A stretch of DNA of 64,000 bases from Paludibacteraceae bacterium (GTDB lineage: Bacteria > Bacteroidota > Bacteroidia > Bacteroidales > Paludibacteraceae): positions 4,595 to 68,594 of the forward strand of contig CAJOPG010000134.1 in NCBI GenBank assembly GCA_905236355.1. Direction: 5' to 3'. Of this stretch, positions 11,301 to 48,495 are shown in pieces. A model generated the notes under the pieces. The model was not told the origin of the DNA. It saw only the letters and a program-made list of their open reading frames with translations, and searched no databases. Numbering within the stretch: position 1 is the stretch's first letter; each line of letters opens with the position of its first letter. A program made the position numbers and the translations under genes.

Positions 11301-11476
11301 GCACTGCCGATATACCATAAGTTATTCCATATGATACTCGAGTTCTTAGGTGTATTCAGATTCCACTGTGCGTTTTCAACTGCATCTTCAAAATCACACT
11401 TATATGAGGATAATGCTTGCGCATTCATTCCCATAGCGAACAACAAAAGCAGCAATATGTTTGCTATTCTTTTCAT
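8315..11476 (-). CDS. Secreted 1053-aa surface protein, paralog of 11476..14598: N-terminal adhesin-like domain, Fn3-like domain, conserved central domain of unknown function, Cys-containing repeats, Ig-like region, T9SS type-A-like C-terminal sorting domain
   Basis: Signal peptide MKRIANILLLLLFAMGMNA|QA. Motifs YHTIHYLPGEYDARTY, QPRFTLDIVD, HYGYAYFTLNC, two ...GCDSV... repeats and RYQWYKNAVAV. The C-terminus MMRLVGVDGVLLLQQQLEEGQTFVSLNVSKGIYFLQLQPRNDKGRVVVIQVR resembles Por/T9SS C-terminal domains. The ATG overlaps the upstream stop by 1 nt. Confidence 0.85.
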   Translation of the reverse strand: MKRIANILLLLLFAMGMNAQALSSYKCDFEDAVENAQWNLNTPKNSSIIWNNLWYIGSAVSNGGTNSLYISSDGGVTASYAQTNQIMIAWRELTLESGNYDIVFDWRSMGTPGSYIKVCWVPESYFDDFVCGSNSTISGRKWITDNELELQGVDTLYGSSAWQHGMSSLTSDGTPHRLLFVWRTTSTAAVLLPGACIDNIQIARNNCGRPTDLEVNMHGTMATFSWHSSAERFALRYSRLDENEYQVIDDIIGSSVTVPLQHGVYNVSLQVYCQGDTSVWYAFPPVIVYDSNCFNYLDLTDDNCSYSDSTASDYTKNKYKPGKLDYGYAASYSYHTIHYLPGEYDARTYNSKDEDGNDVNPLRTIPEGEIASVRINGWRGRPASVAGKSEENARVARVTYDYVVDKADASNLILKYAVVLQVPTHDELQQPRFTLDIVDAETGEALSHCTTVDFAATLLNAKKEGWYFGTIEDGDSKVIWKDWTTIGLNLAEYDGRHIQVVLSAYGCTASVHYGYAYFTLNCIKGGIEGIQCGNNLTEQFIAPEGFKYHWYKETNPSEKLANADQRIFPVAYDDTTHYAVECIYPTDAGCSFVLTACATPRFPIPEISYSLQQKDCKNIVRLVNTSHIRTKIIKEDRYIDTEARPDYVLWDLGELGSQTYDWEPEISVPATGGRYLVSLRAAVGLCDSTQYLELVIPAISDTVVTDSIQLCAGDFYVYQSRMISSDTTIITEGKTIAGCDSVHQLKIKFVDKIEVRLDTVLAEGDTLWCDGVAMTQTDTYTYNFVSTAGCDSVLTVNLTVVPRLRVVADSVLMPCGDEKTVAIPYKVTSGTASGCKVEFSEEAIVAGWRDTVFVFTLQEGEMLLSIPANIPGWYSLQLRFESEENGTVLLPIEIMVRYPSSLLSQRWSDVIGIKSSETEYARYQWYKNAVAVDNADSPYLYVPDGLEIGAEYSVELFTISAERGVMSCPIVATAVADSEIEITPTVVSEGVPVRIRLSESAMMRLVGVDGVLLLQQQLEEGQTFVSLNVSKGIYFLQLQPRNDKGRVVVIQVR

Positions 11477-14400
11477 CAGTTATTGCGTCTTACTTTTCTA
11501 CCAAATATATCGTAGCGGATGTCATCCGTTTCAATGTATAACCGCTGATTTTCTAACACCTTCTTAACTCTCTTTGCCGAGGCATCCGAATTGTCAGGAA
11601 CAACCATATCAAACACAAACGGGCAGATTATCAGTGGTGTTCCATCTTCCAACTTTACCTCTACATAATATTCATTGGTTGCATCATTTAGTCCGTCGGC
11701 ATGTATCCAAGAACCCGTTGCACCCTCTATCGCCTTATCATTACAATACCACTGATAGGAACTGAAACGGAACCCTCCGTTATAGTTCTCGTTCAGTATG
11801 GCAAGTACATTATCCCATTTTGCCTTTACTATACTCTTAGGCAGATTAACGACAAACGGAACATACGACATCTGCGGGTCACACCATGGTGTAACAATAG
11901 CAACCTCCGCCTCCATATTGCCCGAAGGAATCCCATTCAACGGGATGGCCAATTCCATGTCCGGTTGGTCCGCCTCAAACTCATAGTCTTCCCCTATTGC
12001 CGGTATATATACCCTTATCTTATCCGCATATTCCGAGTTGCTCACCTTCAAGACAAAGGCATCTTCATCTGCACAAATAAGGGCAGAATGAAGCGATACT
12101 GCAAATTCGGGCAACGCGGCAAGATGTAAATGCACTATTGAATCACACCCCGTCTGTTCGGATGTAAAAGTAGCAATATAATCGTTCCCCGCCCTGTTTA
12201 TCTCCATCCCGCCAAACCGATAGGAACCTCCTGCGCAAATAGTATCATATAATACTGAGTCACGAATTGCCGTTACATTCAGCAACTGATGCACAATACT
12301 GTCACAACCCGTCCATGTCTTAAGTGTATCAACCATTGAATAGTTGCCTACCGCAATATTCTTGTATAAGGAGTCGGCCCATAAGAAAGACTGGCTTCCA
12401 TCTTGCAGCTCACATATCATTGTATCCGCCAAGTAGGTATCCACCTTGTCTATTGCCGGAACATTTATTGTGACATTCCGCACACTGTCTGCATACTCTT
12501 TCCCCCGCACCCAATTGCTTGCATGTAGCGAGTACACAAAGGTTTCTCCCTCATTAGAACAAGGTATATACCAACCATCATAGTTCAACTGATCGGTCTG
12601 GGTTCCATCAGGCAATTCCCATAATGCCGTCATCAGCTTCATATCATACCTGTCTTCTATCTCACCTGTAATCTGATTATGCAGTTGCACATGACTCGCA
12701 TTTCTTACAATAATCCCATTCTGGCAATTTTCAGGAACCCACTCCCACTGAATCTCAGCCTTAGGAGTATGCGGACGGGCTGTGGCTTCCATCAAATAAT
12801 CGCACTCACTGTTAGACGCATATATGATACGACAAAAATAGTTGGTCGTGTCATTTTCATTCACTTCAAACTTATAGTCGGTTGACAGAATATTTTCCGG
12901 TTCTCCTTCTTTGTACCACTCATAGTTGAACCCGTTCGGGGCGGTGAAGACATTAGTCGAAGAATCTTCCCCCCATGGGATACCCTCCATCTCGGAAGAT
13001 ATACAATTTAGCGTAAAATAGCAATAACCGTAATGACCGCCTTGATCGCAATCGTATGAAGTTATAATAATTGTCAGTGTAGAATCAATCCAATCATCCA
13101 AATTAAGTCCTACCGCGCGCCAATCTTGCCACCAATTGCCTTTCTCTTTATTTTCATACCACAAACTCATGTATTGCGGATCGTCCTGTTTCTCGGCTTT
13201 TGTCGGTGTATGGAAGTCCACCGTACCACATTTTATATCAATGGGTTCGCCTGCAGCATTTAATATATCTATTGTCAGGCGCGGTTGGTCTTGTTCTGGG
13301 TGGTCGCCGGTTTCTTGTAGCACCATAGCATACTGAATCAACAAAATCGACCCCATATTTCCGGGAACAGTATAATTAAAGGTGATACTTTCATATTGTG
13401 AACTGGTTTCCCAGTTGCCTAATCTAACAGAGCCAAATGCACCTTCGGGAACTGTTTTCAGACTGATTGGATTCCCGTTTTTATCTTTCGTTCCTATAGT
13501 TCGCACATCATATTCATCCTGCATATAATGGGTTGTATGGCGACTTTTCTCCGAAGCATACCCCCAGTCCACTTTTTCATAACCTGACGGAGACTTGCCC
13601 GTTCTTGCATTCCAAGTACCGGTTTCATAAGTCGCTCCATACATGTTCAAAGCATCAAAACAATCGGTTTCATATACATACAATGGCTTGATGTAGTAGT
13701 ATATAGTGGTGTCCGCCCCAACTATTCCCCGCATCCAGAACTCATAAGCCCCAAACTCCATCTGATACTTAGAGAATACAGAGTTGGCTGTTTCACCTTC
13801 TTCCCAAGCTCCCGTTTGTCCTGAATCCGACAGTTTACGATAACGGACTTCGTACTTATCGGCCTCGAATGCCTCCCAATACAGATTGGAATAACCTTGC
13901 AAATAATCTACATGTGCGTTCTGCGGCCATTCTGATTCCGGAGACTTGGACAATTGAATATTATCCAGCATTATACTTGAAGGGGTCGGATTTGTCTTGG
14001 CAGTATTCAACCACTCTATCAACAGGGACAAGTTACGCGTCGGATGTTGTACATTTTCCCATGTCGCGCTTATAGAAAATTTGGTTTGAATATGTTGCCA
14101 TTCTTCCTCACCCGAGAGGCGAACCACATTCTCGCCCATTATTGAAAAAGATTTGCTGTTCTGAAGAAAAGCAGGTTCTCCACTCCCACTCCGGCAGTAT
14201 AAGTCAGACCCATTTTGTGAGGTTATCAACACCCTTACATACCCTTCATCCCCATTACCCTGTCCTTTCCAGTCAAAGGCGAAGTCATAATCACCTTTTT
14301 CCAACTGCAATTCACGATAGGCTAAAACAATATTGGCAGAAGACGGATTATATACAGCGGCAGTCGCATTGGAAGATATATACATTGCGTGTGAACCATC

Positions 14401-14598
14401 GTAAGCATCCGCCGTCCCCACTAACCACAGATTGTCGGTAGGAGCACTTTGATTCAGCACCCACTGTGAATTTTCCGTATCGTCTTCAAAGCCACAAAAA
14501 TAAGGGAGGTCTGACATTGAAACAGGAGCAGCATGCGTGCAGAAATATACAGGCACACAAAGCCCCCATACTACTATCAACAGACCTAACCTTTTCAT
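11476..14598 (-). CDS. Secreted 1040-aa surface protein, paralog of 8315..11476, with the same domain order but no T9SS-like tail; ends in a different short C-terminal motif
   Basis: Signal peptide MKRLGLLIVVWGLCVPVYFCTHA. Motifs RHTTHYMQDEYDVRTI, QPRLTIDILN, HYGYCYFTLNC, two ...GCDSIVH... repeats and SYQWYCNDKAIEGATG. The C-terminus is KVLENQRLYIETDDIRYDIFGRKVRRNN. Stop TGA 11478-11476 overlaps the ATG 11476-11474 of the next gene (TGATG). Confidence 0.85.
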   Translation of the reverse strand: MKRLGLLIVVWGLCVPVYFCTHAAPVSMSDLPYFCGFEDDTENSQWVLNQSAPTDNLWLVGTADAYDGSHAMYISSNATAAVYNPSSANIVLAYRELQLEKGDYDFAFDWKGQGNGDEGYVRVLITSQNGSDLYCRSGSGEPAFLQNSKSFSIMGENVVRLSGEEEWQHIQTKFSISATWENVQHPTRNLSLLIEWLNTAKTNPTPSSIMLDNIQLSKSPESEWPQNAHVDYLQGYSNLYWEAFEADKYEVRYRKLSDSGQTGAWEEGETANSVFSKYQMEFGAYEFWMRGIVGADTTIYYYIKPLYVYETDCFDALNMYGATYETGTWNARTGKSPSGYEKVDWGYASEKSRHTTHYMQDEYDVRTIGTKDKNGNPISLKTVPEGAFGSVRLGNWETSSQYESITFNYTVPGNMGSILLIQYAMVLQETGDHPEQDQPRLTIDILNAAGEPIDIKCGTVDFHTPTKAEKQDDPQYMSLWYENKEKGNWWQDWRAVGLNLDDWIDSTLTIIITSYDCDQGGHYGYCYFTLNCISSEMEGIPWGEDSSTNVFTAPNGFNYEWYKEGEPENILSTDYKFEVNENDTTNYFCRIIYASNSECDYLMEATARPHTPKAEIQWEWVPENCQNGIIVRNASHVQLHNQITGEIEDRYDMKLMTALWELPDGTQTDQLNYDGWYIPCSNEGETFVYSLHASNWVRGKEYADSVRNVTINVPAIDKVDTYLADTMICELQDGSQSFLWADSLYKNIAVGNYSMVDTLKTWTGCDSIVHQLLNVTAIRDSVLYDTICAGGSYRFGGMEINRAGNDYIATFTSEQTGCDSIVHLHLAALPEFAVSLHSALICADEDAFVLKVSNSEYADKIRVYIPAIGEDYEFEADQPDMELAIPLNGIPSGNMEAEVAIVTPWCDPQMSYVPFVVNLPKSIVKAKWDNVLAILNENYNGGFRFSSYQWYCNDKAIEGATGSWIHADGLNDATNEYYVEVKLEDGTPLIICPFVFDMVVPDNSDASAKRVKKVLENQRLYIETDDIRYDIFGRKVRRNN

Positions 14599-14649: not shown

Positions 14650-14681
14650 CAAAAATAAGCGTTTTTTTTTTTTTGTACAAA
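14650..14681 (-). promoter_or_regulatory. Bacteroidetes-type promoter (-33 TTTG, -7 TAnnTTTG) for the surface-protein gene cluster
   Basis: The minus strand reads tatTTTGtacAAAAAAAAAAAAAcgctTATTTTTGcagcg. The TTTG is at 14681-14678 and TATTTTTG at 14657-14650, with a 20-nt spacer. The box lies 52 nt upstream of ATG 14598. Confidence 0.55.
14662..14674. repeat. Homopolymer T13 (A13 on the coding strand) inside the promoter spacer
   Basis: Direct count in gTTTTTTTTTTTTTg at 14661-14675. It is the longest homopolymer I noticed in the window. Confidence 0.95.
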
Positions 14682-14786
14682 TAAAAAGTGCTTTTTGTAG
14701 CAAAATGTTACACCAAGCACCCGCAAATTGTATGGATATGTATGGAATATATACATATCATACTATAAAATAAAACATGTAATACA

Positions 14787-14814
14787 GGAGAGAGACCGTA
14801 CGCAGTCTCTCTCC
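14787..14814 (-). terminator. Hairpin downstream of htpG (putative terminator)
   Basis: GGAGAGAGAC (14787-14796), loop cgtacgca, GTCTCTCTCC (14805-14814): a perfect 10-bp stem 25 nt past the htpG stop. On the minus strand it is followed by tgtattacatgttttatttta. Confidence 0.5.
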
Positions 14815-14838
14815 TAAAATGTATGTATGTCAAATATG

Positions 14839-16908
14839 TCAGAGTAGTTCTACGGAACGATTGACAAACTTGGCAAGGCTTTCACCTTTGAGCATTCCAC
14901 CGGCAAGAAGGGCGATGTCAATGAGCTGTTTCATGCGACTATTGTCTTTGGCAACAGCGGCATAGAGTTGCTTGAGTTGGTTTTTGAGATCTGCCACTTC
15001 TTTGGTCAGATTGCTGACAGCATCTTTCTCTTCCTGCGTAAGTTCATCATACTTTTTATCTTTCTGTTCGTCACGCAAGCGTTGCTCTTCCTGCTCTTTG
15101 GCTGTTATCTGCTCTGAGAGAGGTGCAACTTGTTCATGGGTCTGCTCTACCACATCTTCTGCCAAGCGTTGAATAAGTGGATGGGCAGTATTGAGCACAA
15201 GGTTATATTGGTCCGGCATCTGCCCATAGAAAGACATGCCTTGCTGGTGAGCAGACATCTCCTTCATACGGCGCATCCACTCGTTTTGAGTCAGGAAGAC
15301 AGGCAGCGCATCTGTGCTGACACTTTCCAAAGAAACGGTATAGTCGGGTTTGCCGCTTTGTTCCGTCGATTCATTGTTCAGAAGGCTCTCAAAGGAATAG
15401 CGCAAAGCGTCTTCCTGCTCTGCTGTGAGAGTTACCTTTTCCTTGTCTTCTTTCTTGATAAGATTTTCAATAACATCTGCGTCAACGCGTGTGAATCGCA
15501 TATTCTCGTTTTTCTGTTCGGTCTGCGAGATAATATGCACATCCAGTTCGCTATCCATCAACAAAACATCATAGCCTTTTTCCTTTGCACGCTGTATGTA
15601 GGCGTAAGATGCATCGGCATCTTGGGTGTAGAGCACTACAAGATTGCCATCCTTGTCGGTTTGTTTTTCCTTGATGAAGTCTTTGTATTCGTCAAGTGTA
15701 TAGAATTTCTTGTCGATATTTTCAAAGAGTGCAAATTTGACGGCACGCTCATAGAACTTCTCATCGGAAAGCATACCAAACTGTATGAACAGTTTGATGT
15801 CGTTCCACTTTTTTTCGAAGTCTTCGCGTTCGTTTTTGAACATCTCGGCGAGTTTGTCCGCCACCTTCTTGGTGATGTGTCCGCTGATTTTCTTGACGGC
15901 GGCATCGCTTTGCAGATAAGAGCGGCTTACATTGAGGGGGATGTCAGGGGAGTCAATAACACCATGTAGCAGAGTGAGGTACTCGGGTACGATATTCTCT
16001 ATTTCATCGGTAACAAAGACCTGATTGCAATAAAGTTGGATTTTATTGCGACGGATGTCGAGGTTGTTCTTTATTTTGGGGAAATAGAGAATACCAGTCA
16101 GGTGGAAAGGATAGTCCACATTGAGATGTATGTGGAAGAGGGGTTCATCGAACTGCATGGGATAGAGTTCGTGATAGAAATTTTTATAGTCTTCTTCCGT
16201 GAGGTCGACCGGCTTCCGTGTCCATGCGGGTGTAGTGTTGTTTATAACATTTTCTTCGCCGGTTTCCTGCTCTCGTCCGTCCTTCCACTCTTTTTTCATG
16301 CCGAAGGCAATCTCAACAGGGAGGAACTTACAGTACTTGGTAAGCAGTTCCTGGATTTTGCTATCTTCCAGAAACTCTTTGTTTTCACTGTCAATATGTA
16401 GCACGATGTCGGTACCGCGTTCAGCCTTGATGGTATCTTCCATTTCATAGACGGGAGAGCCGTCGCATGACCAATGGACCGCTTTGGCGTCCTCTTTATA
16501 AGACAAGGAAAAGATTTCCACTTTTTTGCTGACCATAAAGGCGGAGTAGAATCCGAGTCCGAAGTGTCCGATGATAGCGGCAGCGTTGTCCTTATACTTA
16601 TTGACAAACTCTTCAGCTCCGGATAAAGCAATCTGGTTGATGTATTTGTCCACTTCTTCGGCGGTCATACCGATACCATGGTCACTGACAGTAAGCGTTT
16701 TCTTTTTCTTGTCAATGCTGACGCGCACCCGCAGGTCGCCAAGATCGCCTTTGGCTTCTCCGACAGATGAGAGTGTTTTCAATTTTTGGGTAGCATCCAC
16801 CGCATTACTTACCAACTCACGAAGAAAAATCTCGTGGTCACTATAAAGAAATTTTTTGATGATGGGGAAGATATTGTCTGATGTTACCCCGATATTACCT
16901 TGTGCCAT
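14839..16908 (-). CDS. htpG: Molecular chaperone HtpG (Hsp90 family)
   Basis: 689 aa. The N-terminus MAQGNIGVTSDNIFPIIKKFLYSDHEIFLRELVSNAVDA and GHFGLGFYSAF are Hsp90/HATPase signatures. Full-length ORF. Confidence 0.95.
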   Translation of the reverse strand: MAQGNIGVTSDNIFPIIKKFLYSDHEIFLRELVSNAVDATQKLKTLSSVGEAKGDLGDLRVRVSIDKKKKTLTVSDHGIGMTAEEVDKYINQIALSGAEEFVNKYKDNAAAIIGHFGLGFYSAFMVSKKVEIFSLSYKEDAKAVHWSCDGSPVYEMEDTIKAERGTDIVLHIDSENKEFLEDSKIQELLTKYCKFLPVEIAFGMKKEWKDGREQETGEENVINNTTPAWTRKPVDLTEEDYKNFYHELYPMQFDEPLFHIHLNVDYPFHLTGILYFPKIKNNLDIRRNKIQLYCNQVFVTDEIENIVPEYLTLLHGVIDSPDIPLNVSRSYLQSDAAVKKISGHITKKVADKLAEMFKNEREDFEKKWNDIKLFIQFGMLSDEKFYERAVKFALFENIDKKFYTLDEYKDFIKEKQTDKDGNLVVLYTQDADASYAYIQRAKEKGYDVLLMDSELDVHIISQTEQKNENMRFTRVDADVIENLIKKEDKEKVTLTAEQEDALRYSFESLLNNESTEQSGKPDYTVSLESVSTDALPVFLTQNEWMRRMKEMSAHQQGMSFYGQMPDQYNLVLNTAHPLIQRLAEDVVEQTHEQVAPLSEQITAKEQEEQRLRDEQKDKKYDELTQEEKDAVSNLTKEVADLKNQLKQLYAAVAKDNSRMKQLIDIALLAGGMLKGESLAKFVNRSVELL

Positions 16909-47217: not shown

Positions 47218-48495
47218 CTACAGAGCATTCTTCAGCCGGAGCATGTTGGCCGCTTCTATTTTTTGACGGGCATAGTCGAGTGTGACAACATACTCTGAAT
47301 TTTTGGTTTCTTTGCCCGGCACTTCGTACATGACATCCATCATGAGTGTCTCCATGAGCGAGCGTAGTCCCCGTGCACCCAGTTTGTATTCCACTGCTTT
47401 TTCCACTACATAGTCGAGCACTTGAGGTTCAAAGGCAAGTCTCACACCATCCATCTCAAGCAGTTTGACATATTGCTTCACTATAGCATTTTTCGGTTCG
47501 GTGAGAATATTGCGGAGCGCTTCCATAGAGAGCGGCTGAAGATAGGTGATGACGGGTAGCCGGCCTATAATTTCGGGAATGAGGCCGAATGACTTCAGAT
47601 CTTGCGGGGCAATATATTGGAGAAGGTTGTTTTTGTCAATTTGCTGACGCTTGCCCACGGAGTCGAATCCAACGACCTGCGTATTGAGTCGTTGAGCGAT
47701 TTTACGTTCGATTCCGTCGAAGGCGCCGCCGCAGATGAAGAGTATGTTCTGCGTGTTGACATGCACGAATTCCTGCTCGGGATGTTTTCTTCCTCCTTGT
47801 GGCGGCACATTGACCACGGAGCCTTCCAAGAGTTTGAGCAGTGCCTGTTGTACACCTTCGCCCGAGACATCTCGTGTGATGCTCGGATTGTCGGACTTCC
47901 GCGCGATTTTATCGATTTCGTCAATGAAGACGATACCTCGTTCCGCCTGACGGACATCATAGTCACATTCCTGCAAGAGTCGTGAGAGCAGCGACTCGAC
48001 ATCTTCCCCCACATAGCCTGCCTGCGTGAGTACAGTAGCATCCACAATGGTGAAGGGTACTTGCAGCATTTTGGCGATGGTTTTGGCGAGGAGCGTTTTG
48101 CCAGTTCCTGTAGGTCCGACGAGTATTATATTGGATTTTTCTATTTCCACATCATCCGCAGCAGCGGGCTGAAGGATGCGTTTGTAGTGATTATACACCG
48201 CTACAGAAAGGTATTTTTTTGCATCATCCTGTCCGATGACATACATGTCGAGGAACGCCTTGATATCAGCCGGCTTGGGCAGTTTGTCAAGTGCGAGTTC
48301 TGTTTTGGCGGATTTCCGGGTGTTTTTTGGGGAGTCGTCCTTTTGAGTCGCTATCAGCCCCATCTCTTTCAGAATTTCGTTTGCCTGTTCAATACAATCA
48401 GGACAGATATACGCCCCGTCTATACCTGAAAGGAGGTTAGGCACTTCTCTTCCACAGAAAGAACAAAGAGTTTTTGGGGTATTTTTTTTTGCCAT
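47218..48495 (-). CDS. clpX: ATP-dependent Clp protease ATP-binding subunit ClpX
   Basis: Zn ribbon CSFCGREV...CPDC, Walker [24 protein letters not shown] 48495 (MAKKNTPK...) was chosen so that it does not overlap clpP. Confidence 0.93.

Follow-up and report, generated by a model that had tools for sequence, protein, structure and literature searches.

The minus strand of the window, by which we mean the whole 64-kb stretch of DNA analyzed in this work, carries a run of 13 adenines between two short elements that resemble a Bacteroidetes promoter, immediately upstream of genes for large surface-type proteins. The question that this locus raises is whether such a run could be a slippage-prone promoter spacer through which transcription of these genes is switched or tuned. 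The initial annotation had described the block as TTTG-tac-A13-cgct-TATTTTTG with a 20-nt spacer, and the sequence at 14650-14681 is exactly so: read on the minus strand from 14681 to 14650, TTTG (14681-14678) is followed by tac, A13 (14674-14662), cgct, and TATTTTTG (14657-14650). The reverse complement of 14650-14681 is TTTGTACAAAAAAAAAAAAACGCTTATTTTTG, and the plus strand shows T13 at 14662-14674. The elements of this block are the following:

14683..14687, minus strand: short T-run, T5 in the window, just upstream of the -33 element
14678..14681, minus strand: -33 element TTTG, a perfect match to the sigma-ABfr consensus, located within the 10-bp palindrome TTTGTACAAA
14662..14674, minus strand: A13 homopolymer, which accounts for 13 nt of the 20-nt spacer separating the -33 element from the -7 element
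14650..14657, minus strand: -7 element TATTTTTG, a match to the motif TAnnTTTG

The sigma-ABfr consensus of Bacteroidetes consists of a -33 TTTG and a -7 TAnnTTTG element (PMC7366714), and at the motif level the block has both boxes together with the 20-nt spacer that is typical of the clade. When the window was searched for TTTG-N17-23-TAnnTTTG, 8 sites were found versus 1.93 expected, a number reached in 0 of 100 shuffles, and all 8 had a spacer of 19 or 20 nt though gaps of 17 to 23 nt were allowed. The description of this block as a canonical Bacteroidetes promoter thus holds for both motif and spacing. The A13 run is the only homopolymer of at least 10 nt in the 64-kb window (the runner-up is a T9 at 48482), and under an iid model approximately 0.004 A/T runs of at least 13 nt are expected in 64 kb with 45.6% G+C. 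With 13 nt, the run is above the length at which the tract of an SSR promoter-spacer contingency locus is prone to slip (about 8 to 9 nt or more), and, at the motif level, it is located between both core promoter elements so that its length sets their spacing.

The surroundings of the block were analyzed for genes and structured elements, and the features needed to place the promoter are listed below:

14839-16908, minus strand: htpG (NF003555, 644 bits), the upstream neighbor of the promoter
14785..14816, minus strand: hairpin with a 14-bp stem directly after the htpG stop codon (dG -25.4 kcal/mol, z = -5.4)
11476..14598, minus strand: gene 1, 1040 aa, with a signal-peptide-like N-terminus as judged by eye
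8315..11476, minus strand: gene 2, 1053 aa, a tandem paralogue of gene 1 (29% identity) whose start overlaps the gene 1 stop
1..8113, minus strand: gene 3, partial because it runs off the window, more than 2704 aa; its N-terminal domain is MAM-like, and it has at least 8 fn3 repeats

The -7 box lies 51 nt from the ATG (14598) of the 1040-aa minus-strand ORF, and TATTTTTG at 14650-14657 is the single minus-strand copy of TAnnTTTG in the 240-nt intergenic region between htpG and this ORF. The hairpin after htpG, which none of 200 shuffled sequences matched in folding, is probably a terminator that insulates the promoter from htpG read-through. With the ATG 51 nt away and a terminator-like hairpin on the upstream side, the position of the block would suit a sigma-ABfr promoter, in which transcription starts a few nucleotides downstream of the -7 box. 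The T13 run of the plus strand was itself considered as a terminator and ruled out, because there is no convergent plus-strand gene and the preceding stem is just 4 bp long. No Rfam family was found in the intergenic region (best E-value 0.12, with every match far under the gathering score). Between the htpG hairpin and the promoter, an AT-rich stretch at 14724-14770 of the minus strand contains interlocking CATAC/GTATG repeats (gtatgatatgtatatattccatacatatccatac) that have weak inverted-repeat partners at 14819-14840 and are not conserved in the sister species described below.

Gene 1 belongs to a large Paludibacteraceae/Bacteroidales family of approximately 1000- to 1100-aa proteins with several paralogues per genome. 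All of its homologues were found in rumen and gut MAGs of uncultured Paludibacteraceae and other Bacteroidales, and for several of them the protein name refers to a T9SS type A sorting, an fn3, or a PKD domain. The C-terminus of gene 2 gave a weak match to a T9SS sorting domain (TIGR04183, E = 0.0054, below cutoff). The 8 fn3 repeats of gene 3 scored above threshold; Ig-like, MAM, and T9SS CTD matches were under the curated cut-offs. The putative surface character of the products is read from N-termini that look like signal peptides by eye, from the 8 fn3 repeats, from the T9SS names of homologues, and from a T9SS CTD match below cutoff. Downstream of the promoter, genes of this large secreted or surface type continue on the same strand for about 14.6 kb, and the 14-kb surface-protein cluster described earlier is a fair account of these genes, 2 paralogues of approximately 1050 aa followed by an fn3/MAM protein. 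The 200-nt gap between gene 2 and gene 3 (8114-8314, minus strand) contains no TAnnTTTG, and for this reason gene 3, with more than 8 kb, may be co-transcribed from the A13 promoter. The candidate operon would thus consist of genes 1 and 2 and probably also of gene 3; the assignment of genes 1 and 2 to this promoter is part of the switch reading, on which we place an even chance below.

The initial annotation had set a spacer-tract mechanism against the invertase-type phase variation that is classical in Bacteroidales, and this contrast is borne out by the absence of invertase-style inverted repeats flanking the tract. Invertible promoters have near-perfect inverted repeats on both sides of a segment of about 150 to 400 bp that carries the promoter. 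Here the best pairs of repeats are 14 to 22 nt long and 73% to 79% complementary, and none of them convincingly brackets the promoter. A domain scan of five upstream ORFs within about 6 kb gave matches to HtpG (Hsp90), AsmA/DUF748, and DUF6340 and none to a recombinase. An invertible promoter was therefore ruled out, since inverted repeats bracketing the promoter and a recombinase in the five upstream ORFs are both lacking.

To determine which distances between the 2 boxes are used in this clade, we sorted the TTTG-N-TAnnTTTG sites of 797 kb of sequence (75 related loci and the window) according to the length of N. A spacer of 20 nt was found at 48 sites, 19 nt at 21 sites, and 21 nt at 11 sites, while 18 nt occurred at 2 sites, which is below the background of about 5 to 13. 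All other lengths had about 3 to 13 sites each except N = 12, where a secondary excess of 22 sites was observed. The A13 tract gives a distance of 20 nt, the modal value in the clade, A12 would give the second-best distance of 19 nt, and A11 a distance of 18 nt. At the 69 canonical sites with spacers of 19 or 20 nt, the spacers average 70% A+T, and their longest homopolymer ranges from 2 to 8 nt (8 nt at seven sites), with the A13 of the window as the single outlier. A 2007 J Bacteriol study by Chen et al. reportedly found a pronounced effect of spacer length at the F. johnsoniae ompA promoter, with 19 bp being optimal. The spacer of B. thetaiotaomicron promoters has been described as AT-rich and 'of variable length' (Ryan et al. 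2020, PMC7366714), and RNA-seq of F. johnsoniae did not recover the -33 motif (PMC7366714). Because of these 2 observations, spacing may be less critical in such promoters than in sigma-70 promoters.

We then analyzed the length of the tract in other assemblies of the window species, for which the data are consensus sequences of metagenome assemblies. In the public assemblies ERZ1667817 and ERZ28573638 the locus is 99.97% to 99.99% identical to the window and the tract is A13 in both, which indicates that A13 is not a one-off assembly error; the contigs L001, L002, L004, and L005 have this A13. Together with that of the window, these are three assemblies that effectively represent one strain (2 to 3 SNPs in 9 kb) and thus have little power on variability. 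Looking up the exact protein yielded just the same strain, with the contigs L003 and L082 stopping short of the promoter, and a pattern scan of JGI metagenomes with TTGTACAAAAAAAA-N2-16-TATNTTTGCAG gave two unrelated matches (a tRNA promoter with A8 and another locus) and no extra strains. One of the short contigs, L003 (ENA ERZ1667818 scaffold_26601), has at positions 1-338 a segment without a match in the window that adjoins the interior of gene 1 at window position ~14013, and its gene call is a truncated 844-aa product. The junction may come from a chimeric assembly, or gene 1 may have undergone a rearrangement or insertion that is specific to the strain.

The nearest other homologue of gene 1 is P0002, with 67% protein identity, which comes from a sister species. 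There the block reads cac-T6-cTTGTAC-A13-gata-TAT[T/C]TTTGCAGCG, again with a spacer of 20 nt, and the -7 box is TATTTTTG or TATCTTTG followed by GCAGCG. Between the window and the sister species the intergenic region is otherwise diverged and poorly alignable, and the promoter block including the pure tract is its best-conserved part. The three-gene order is found in the sister species as well (1063, 1055, and 2983 aa in L087). Upstream, the sister species carries a gene for a Peptidase_C10/Flg_new protein and a 65-aa ORF (L085-L088:20-3494) where the window has htpG; since the upstream genes differ and the promoter block is intact, either the promoter and operon were relocated as a unit or the neighborhood was rearranged. 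In L085-L091, the public gene call (1063 aa, P0127) starts at a TTG inside TATTTTTG, whereas the conserved ATG (MKRFSLL...) lies 66 nt further downstream. The TTG start is an artefact of annotation, and it conceals the promoter within the coding sequence.

Nine contigs of the sister species, obtained from several samples and assemblers, cover the promoter, and 2 states of the block were found among them: T6/A13 in L081, L085, and L092, and T7/A11 in L086-L091. The A11/T7 state was thus present in six contigs that come from at least 3 BioSamples and several assemblers including Logan, and the A13/T6 state in three contigs. The 2 tracts co-vary strictly, T6 always occurring with A13 and T7 always with A11, and neither A12, nor A14, nor mixed T/A combinations were found among the nine contigs. 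Over 7432 nt, L085 and L090 show no mismatch at all and are set apart solely by 3 gap positions, which fall in the two tracts; between L085 and L087 there are 3 SNPs in 11.2 kb in addition to these gaps. The SNP tree, which has few SNPs within the clade, is ((L089,L091),(L086,(L088,(L085,L087,L090)))) with L081 and L092 as outgroups. On this tree A13/T6 occurs in the outgroups and otherwise only in the deeply nested L085, which has two derived SNPs in common with L087 and L090, both A11, and the more divergent L089 and L091 are also A11. Because A13/T6 nests inside an A11 clade, the tract state has changed at least twice or has reverted. Such homoplasy in the sister species is the pattern that would be expected of a hypermutable repeat. 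The A11 allele sets the boxes at a strongly disfavored distance, since the census contains just 2 sites at 18 nt, and this is indirect evidence that the 2 alleles of the sister species may differ in promoter strength.

Of the heterogeneity between A12, A13, and A14 that the initial annotation proposed to look for, what was found is variation in the sister species, between A13 and A11, and A13 only in the window species (three assemblies, one strain). The idea of spacer slippage likewise stands in part. A sister tract that is length-polymorphic with homoplasy and the preference for 19 to 20 nt both speak for it; on the other hand, the alleles differ by 2 nt and not by 1 nt, and they are coupled to T6/T7. 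Neither the coupling of T6/A13 and T7/A11 nor the allele step of 2 nt is predicted by simple independent slippage. The T-run and the A-run are the two arms of a quasi-palindrome with GTAC at its center, of which TTTGTACAAA is a perfect palindrome in the window. That the tracts pair so strictly around it might point to a mechanism that changes both of them in concert, in place of independent slippage.

We also analyzed homopolymers elsewhere in the family. In the 260 nt upstream of the 24 closest species-representative homologues (48% to 32% identity) there were no A/T runs of at least 7 nt and no G/C runs of at least 6 nt except two short C runs, and because of this absence the tract appears restricted to the lineage of the window and the sister species. 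In L006, a more distant orthologue with 48% identity, the apparently corresponding spacer contains TAC-A5-GCCG, which suggests that A13 may be a lineage-specific expansion of a normal A-run. In the 75 family loci, all 8 intergenic homopolymers of at least 10 nt fell into the 23 kb of intergenic sequence upstream of the operons with a family gene, as against 0 in the remaining 26 kb (binomial p = 0.002), a count that rests on crude ORF calling. These runs are:

L029:2986-2998: A13
L044:3398-3411: T14, which abuts or overlaps a -33 box
L053:685-696: T12, which abuts or overlaps a -33 box
L064:3564-3577: T14
L077:96-107: T12
L014:2958-2967: T10, about 60 nt upstream of a -33 box
L043:963-972: T10, the tail of a terminator
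L037:761-770: G10

The association of homopolymers with the operons of this family is therefore suggestive, and the runs appear heterogeneous in their position relative to the predicted core promoter. In the third orthologue of the L044/L053 pair (P0095 cluster, L093-L096), the tract is absent and the four upstream regions are identical. The T10 of L014, which is also present in L097 and L098 and served as a control, is followed about 60 nt downstream by a canonical TTTG-20-TATCTTTG promoter and about 90 nt downstream by a 294-aa ORF that precedes the family gene. In L099, one of these four contigs, it is T9, and L099 differs by 41 SNPs in 7.1 kb. Because this control tract outside the core promoter also varies, tract polymorphism alone does not prove a switch; what is special to the spacer tract is that it changed on a background of zero substitutions (L085/L090).

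Altogether, we regard the locus as a probable promoter-spacer slippage switch in terms of its class. On this reading, replication slippage would add adenines to the hypermutable run or remove them, the change in length would shift the distance between the -33 and -7 boxes on or off the 19- to 20-nt optimum, and transcription of the whole operon would be raised or lowered in a heritable and reversible manner, as in SSR phase variation of the promoter-spacer type. For the complete proposal, in which A13 is the slippage-prone spacer of a sigma-ABfr-type promoter and switches or tunes transcription of the operon, we consider the chances about evenly balanced. The presence of several paralogues per genome resembles other phase-variable surface families; the closer paralogues and orthologues (48% to 38% identity) and the third orthologue of the L044/L053 pair, which all lack the tract, count against the proposal. 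From the sequence we infer all three of its functional components, namely that the promoter is used in vivo, that spacers of 18 and 20 nt differ in their effect on expression, and that switching is frequent and reversible.

The spacer tract might instead be a static structural element, an extreme version of an AT-rich spacer that acts, for example, as a rigid A-tract tuning promoter strength or as a UP-like element, with near-neutral changes in length. The clade itself offers a basis for this, since the canonical spacers are 70% A+T and A/T runs of 7 to 8 nt are common in them, and both species retain A13, as does every assembly of the window strain. B. thetaiotaomicron spacers are also AT-rich and of variable length (PMC7366714), the control T10 outside a core promoter varies too, and the T-tract of the M. 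agalactiae vpma promoter is a precedent for a promoter tract that does not switch (PMC2268961). However, toggling between the same two states in a clade with 0 to 6 SNPs per 11 kb is unexpected for such an element, the preference for 19 to 20 nt is sharp with 18 nt below background, and A13 is far outside the normal range of spacer runs, so that we regard a static role as possible but doubtful. A functionless by-product, that is, a short A-run expanded by slippage in a place where the motif is fortuitous or the real promoter lies elsewhere, would fit the lineage-specific expansion suggested by TAC-A5-GCCG at the apparently same spacer position of L006. This we consider unlikely, because the block is the best-conserved part of a diverged intergenic region and holds the sole available -7 box, the full motif is 4-fold enriched over shuffles with all sites at 19 to 20 nt, and tracts are enriched upstream of family operons.

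The strict pairing of the 2 runs could also be read as the mark of an operator in which the palindrome TTTGTACAAA and the arms formed by the T-run and A-run bind a dimeric regulator, the tracts being half-site arms and not a length counter. TTTGTACAAA is a perfect 10-bp palindrome, a 12-nt palindrome with 92% complementarity is centred on GTAC, and both TTGTACAA and the 2 flanking runs are conserved in the sister species, where the runs co-vary (T6/A13, T7/A11). Nevertheless, any TTTG-TAC followed by adenines is automatically palindromic, the arms are very unequal (5 to 7 versus 11 to 13 nt), and there is no adjacent regulator gene, which makes an operator very improbable. An error of sequencing or assembly in the tract or in the length differences has the least weight of all and is already largely refuted. 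Illumina consensus sequences are error-prone at homopolymers of 11 to 13 nt and all comparators are metagenome assemblies, but A13 was read in three assemblies of the window strain, A11/T7 in six contigs and A13/T6 in three, and the two tracts change together, unlike random error.

Promoter tracts of this general kind include the poly-G of N. meningitidis porA and the poly-C of opc, the TA repeats of H. influenzae hifA/B, and the poly-C of B. pertussis fim. SSRs control phase variation in Neisseria, Haemophilus, and Bordetella (PMC11868660). In porA, opc, hifA/B, and fim, slippage of the repeat changes the spacing of the promoter elements and modulates the expression of surface antigens. As in these systems, the repeat analyzed here lies in or beside the predicted core promoter of genes with putative surface cargo, and the length of its counterpart in the sister species differs between near-identical contigs. 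Unlike these proteobacterial sigma-70 systems, which have G/C or dinucleotide repeats and measured switching rates, this locus has an A/T run, belongs to Bacteroidales, and has a polymorphism known from sister-species consensus sequences. A closer counterpart in architecture is M. hyorhinis vlp, where a poly(A) tract lies between the -35 and -10 elements and insertions or deletions in the spacer turn transcription on or off; M. arthritidis maa2 and M. mycoides vmm are related promoter-tract systems (all summarized in PMC2268961). The likeness to vlp consists in an A/T homopolymer in the promoter spacer of multi-copy variable surface-protein genes. The differences are the phylum, the promoter geometry (-33 TTTG and -7 TAnnTTTG with a 19- to 20-nt spacer versus -35/-10 with 17 nt), and the cargo (giant T9SS-type proteins in an operon of about 14.6 kb versus small lipoproteins), and switching is here a proposal from sequence. 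M. agalactiae vpma is a cautionary precedent, since it also has a homopolymer immediately beside the core promoter of a variable surface-protein locus, and this T-tract was shown not to cause variation, switching being due to Xer1 recombination (PMC2268961). The invertible promoters of Bacteroides (capsule, SusC/D, S-layer; invertase/Mpi), which belong to the same order, subject costly surface structures to stochastic control through their promoters (PMC11868660), a role that the locus would share; it differs from them by having no such flanking inverted repeats and no recombinase in the five upstream ORFs.

A 2025 review of phase variation mentions Bacteroides solely in connection with invertase or inversion systems (PMC11868660). 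A literature search of partial coverage for phase variation by SSRs or homopolymers in Bacteroidetes, Bacteroidales, Porphyromonas, Prevotella, or Flavobacterium returned no report. The mechanism is known elsewhere, in Mycoplasma, Neisseria, Haemophilus, and Bordetella, and it is the phylum and the promoter geometry that would be new. Given the outcome of this search, slipped-strand phase variation through a promoter spacer at this locus could be the first in Bacteroidota. Phase variation in gut Bacteroidales is now detected and interpreted almost entirely via invertible DNA with PhaseFinder-type scans (PMC11868660). If the slippage reading is true, the locus would stand for a class of heterogeneity that is invisible to inversion scans and that Illumina assemblies systematically flatten, and the concept of contingency loci would reach a phylum whose sigma factor and promoter geometry are different. 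The length of the tract relative to the 19- to 20-nt optimum would then predict the ON or OFF state of surface proteins from rumen and gut metagenomes, and for the engineering of Bacteroides the block would provide a small promoter part that can be tuned. Should the reading be wrong, what is left is an AT-rich spacer with an A-run of unusual length.

On a wider scale, homopolymer tracts within or beside sigma-ABfr promoters might serve Paludibacteraceae and related gut Bacteroidales as a contingency system that spans the family and controls its multi-copy operons for giant T9SS surface proteins, an extension that we put forward tentatively and hold to be somewhat less likely than not to apply. 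Such a system would act in parallel to, or instead of, the invertase switches that are considered typical of the order. Among the loci of the family, a further homopolymer was observed in L017, where a G10 at 3475-3484 lies about 500 nt upstream of the family gene and, by crude ORF calling, inside a coding sequence; it is possibly a repeat of the frameshift type.
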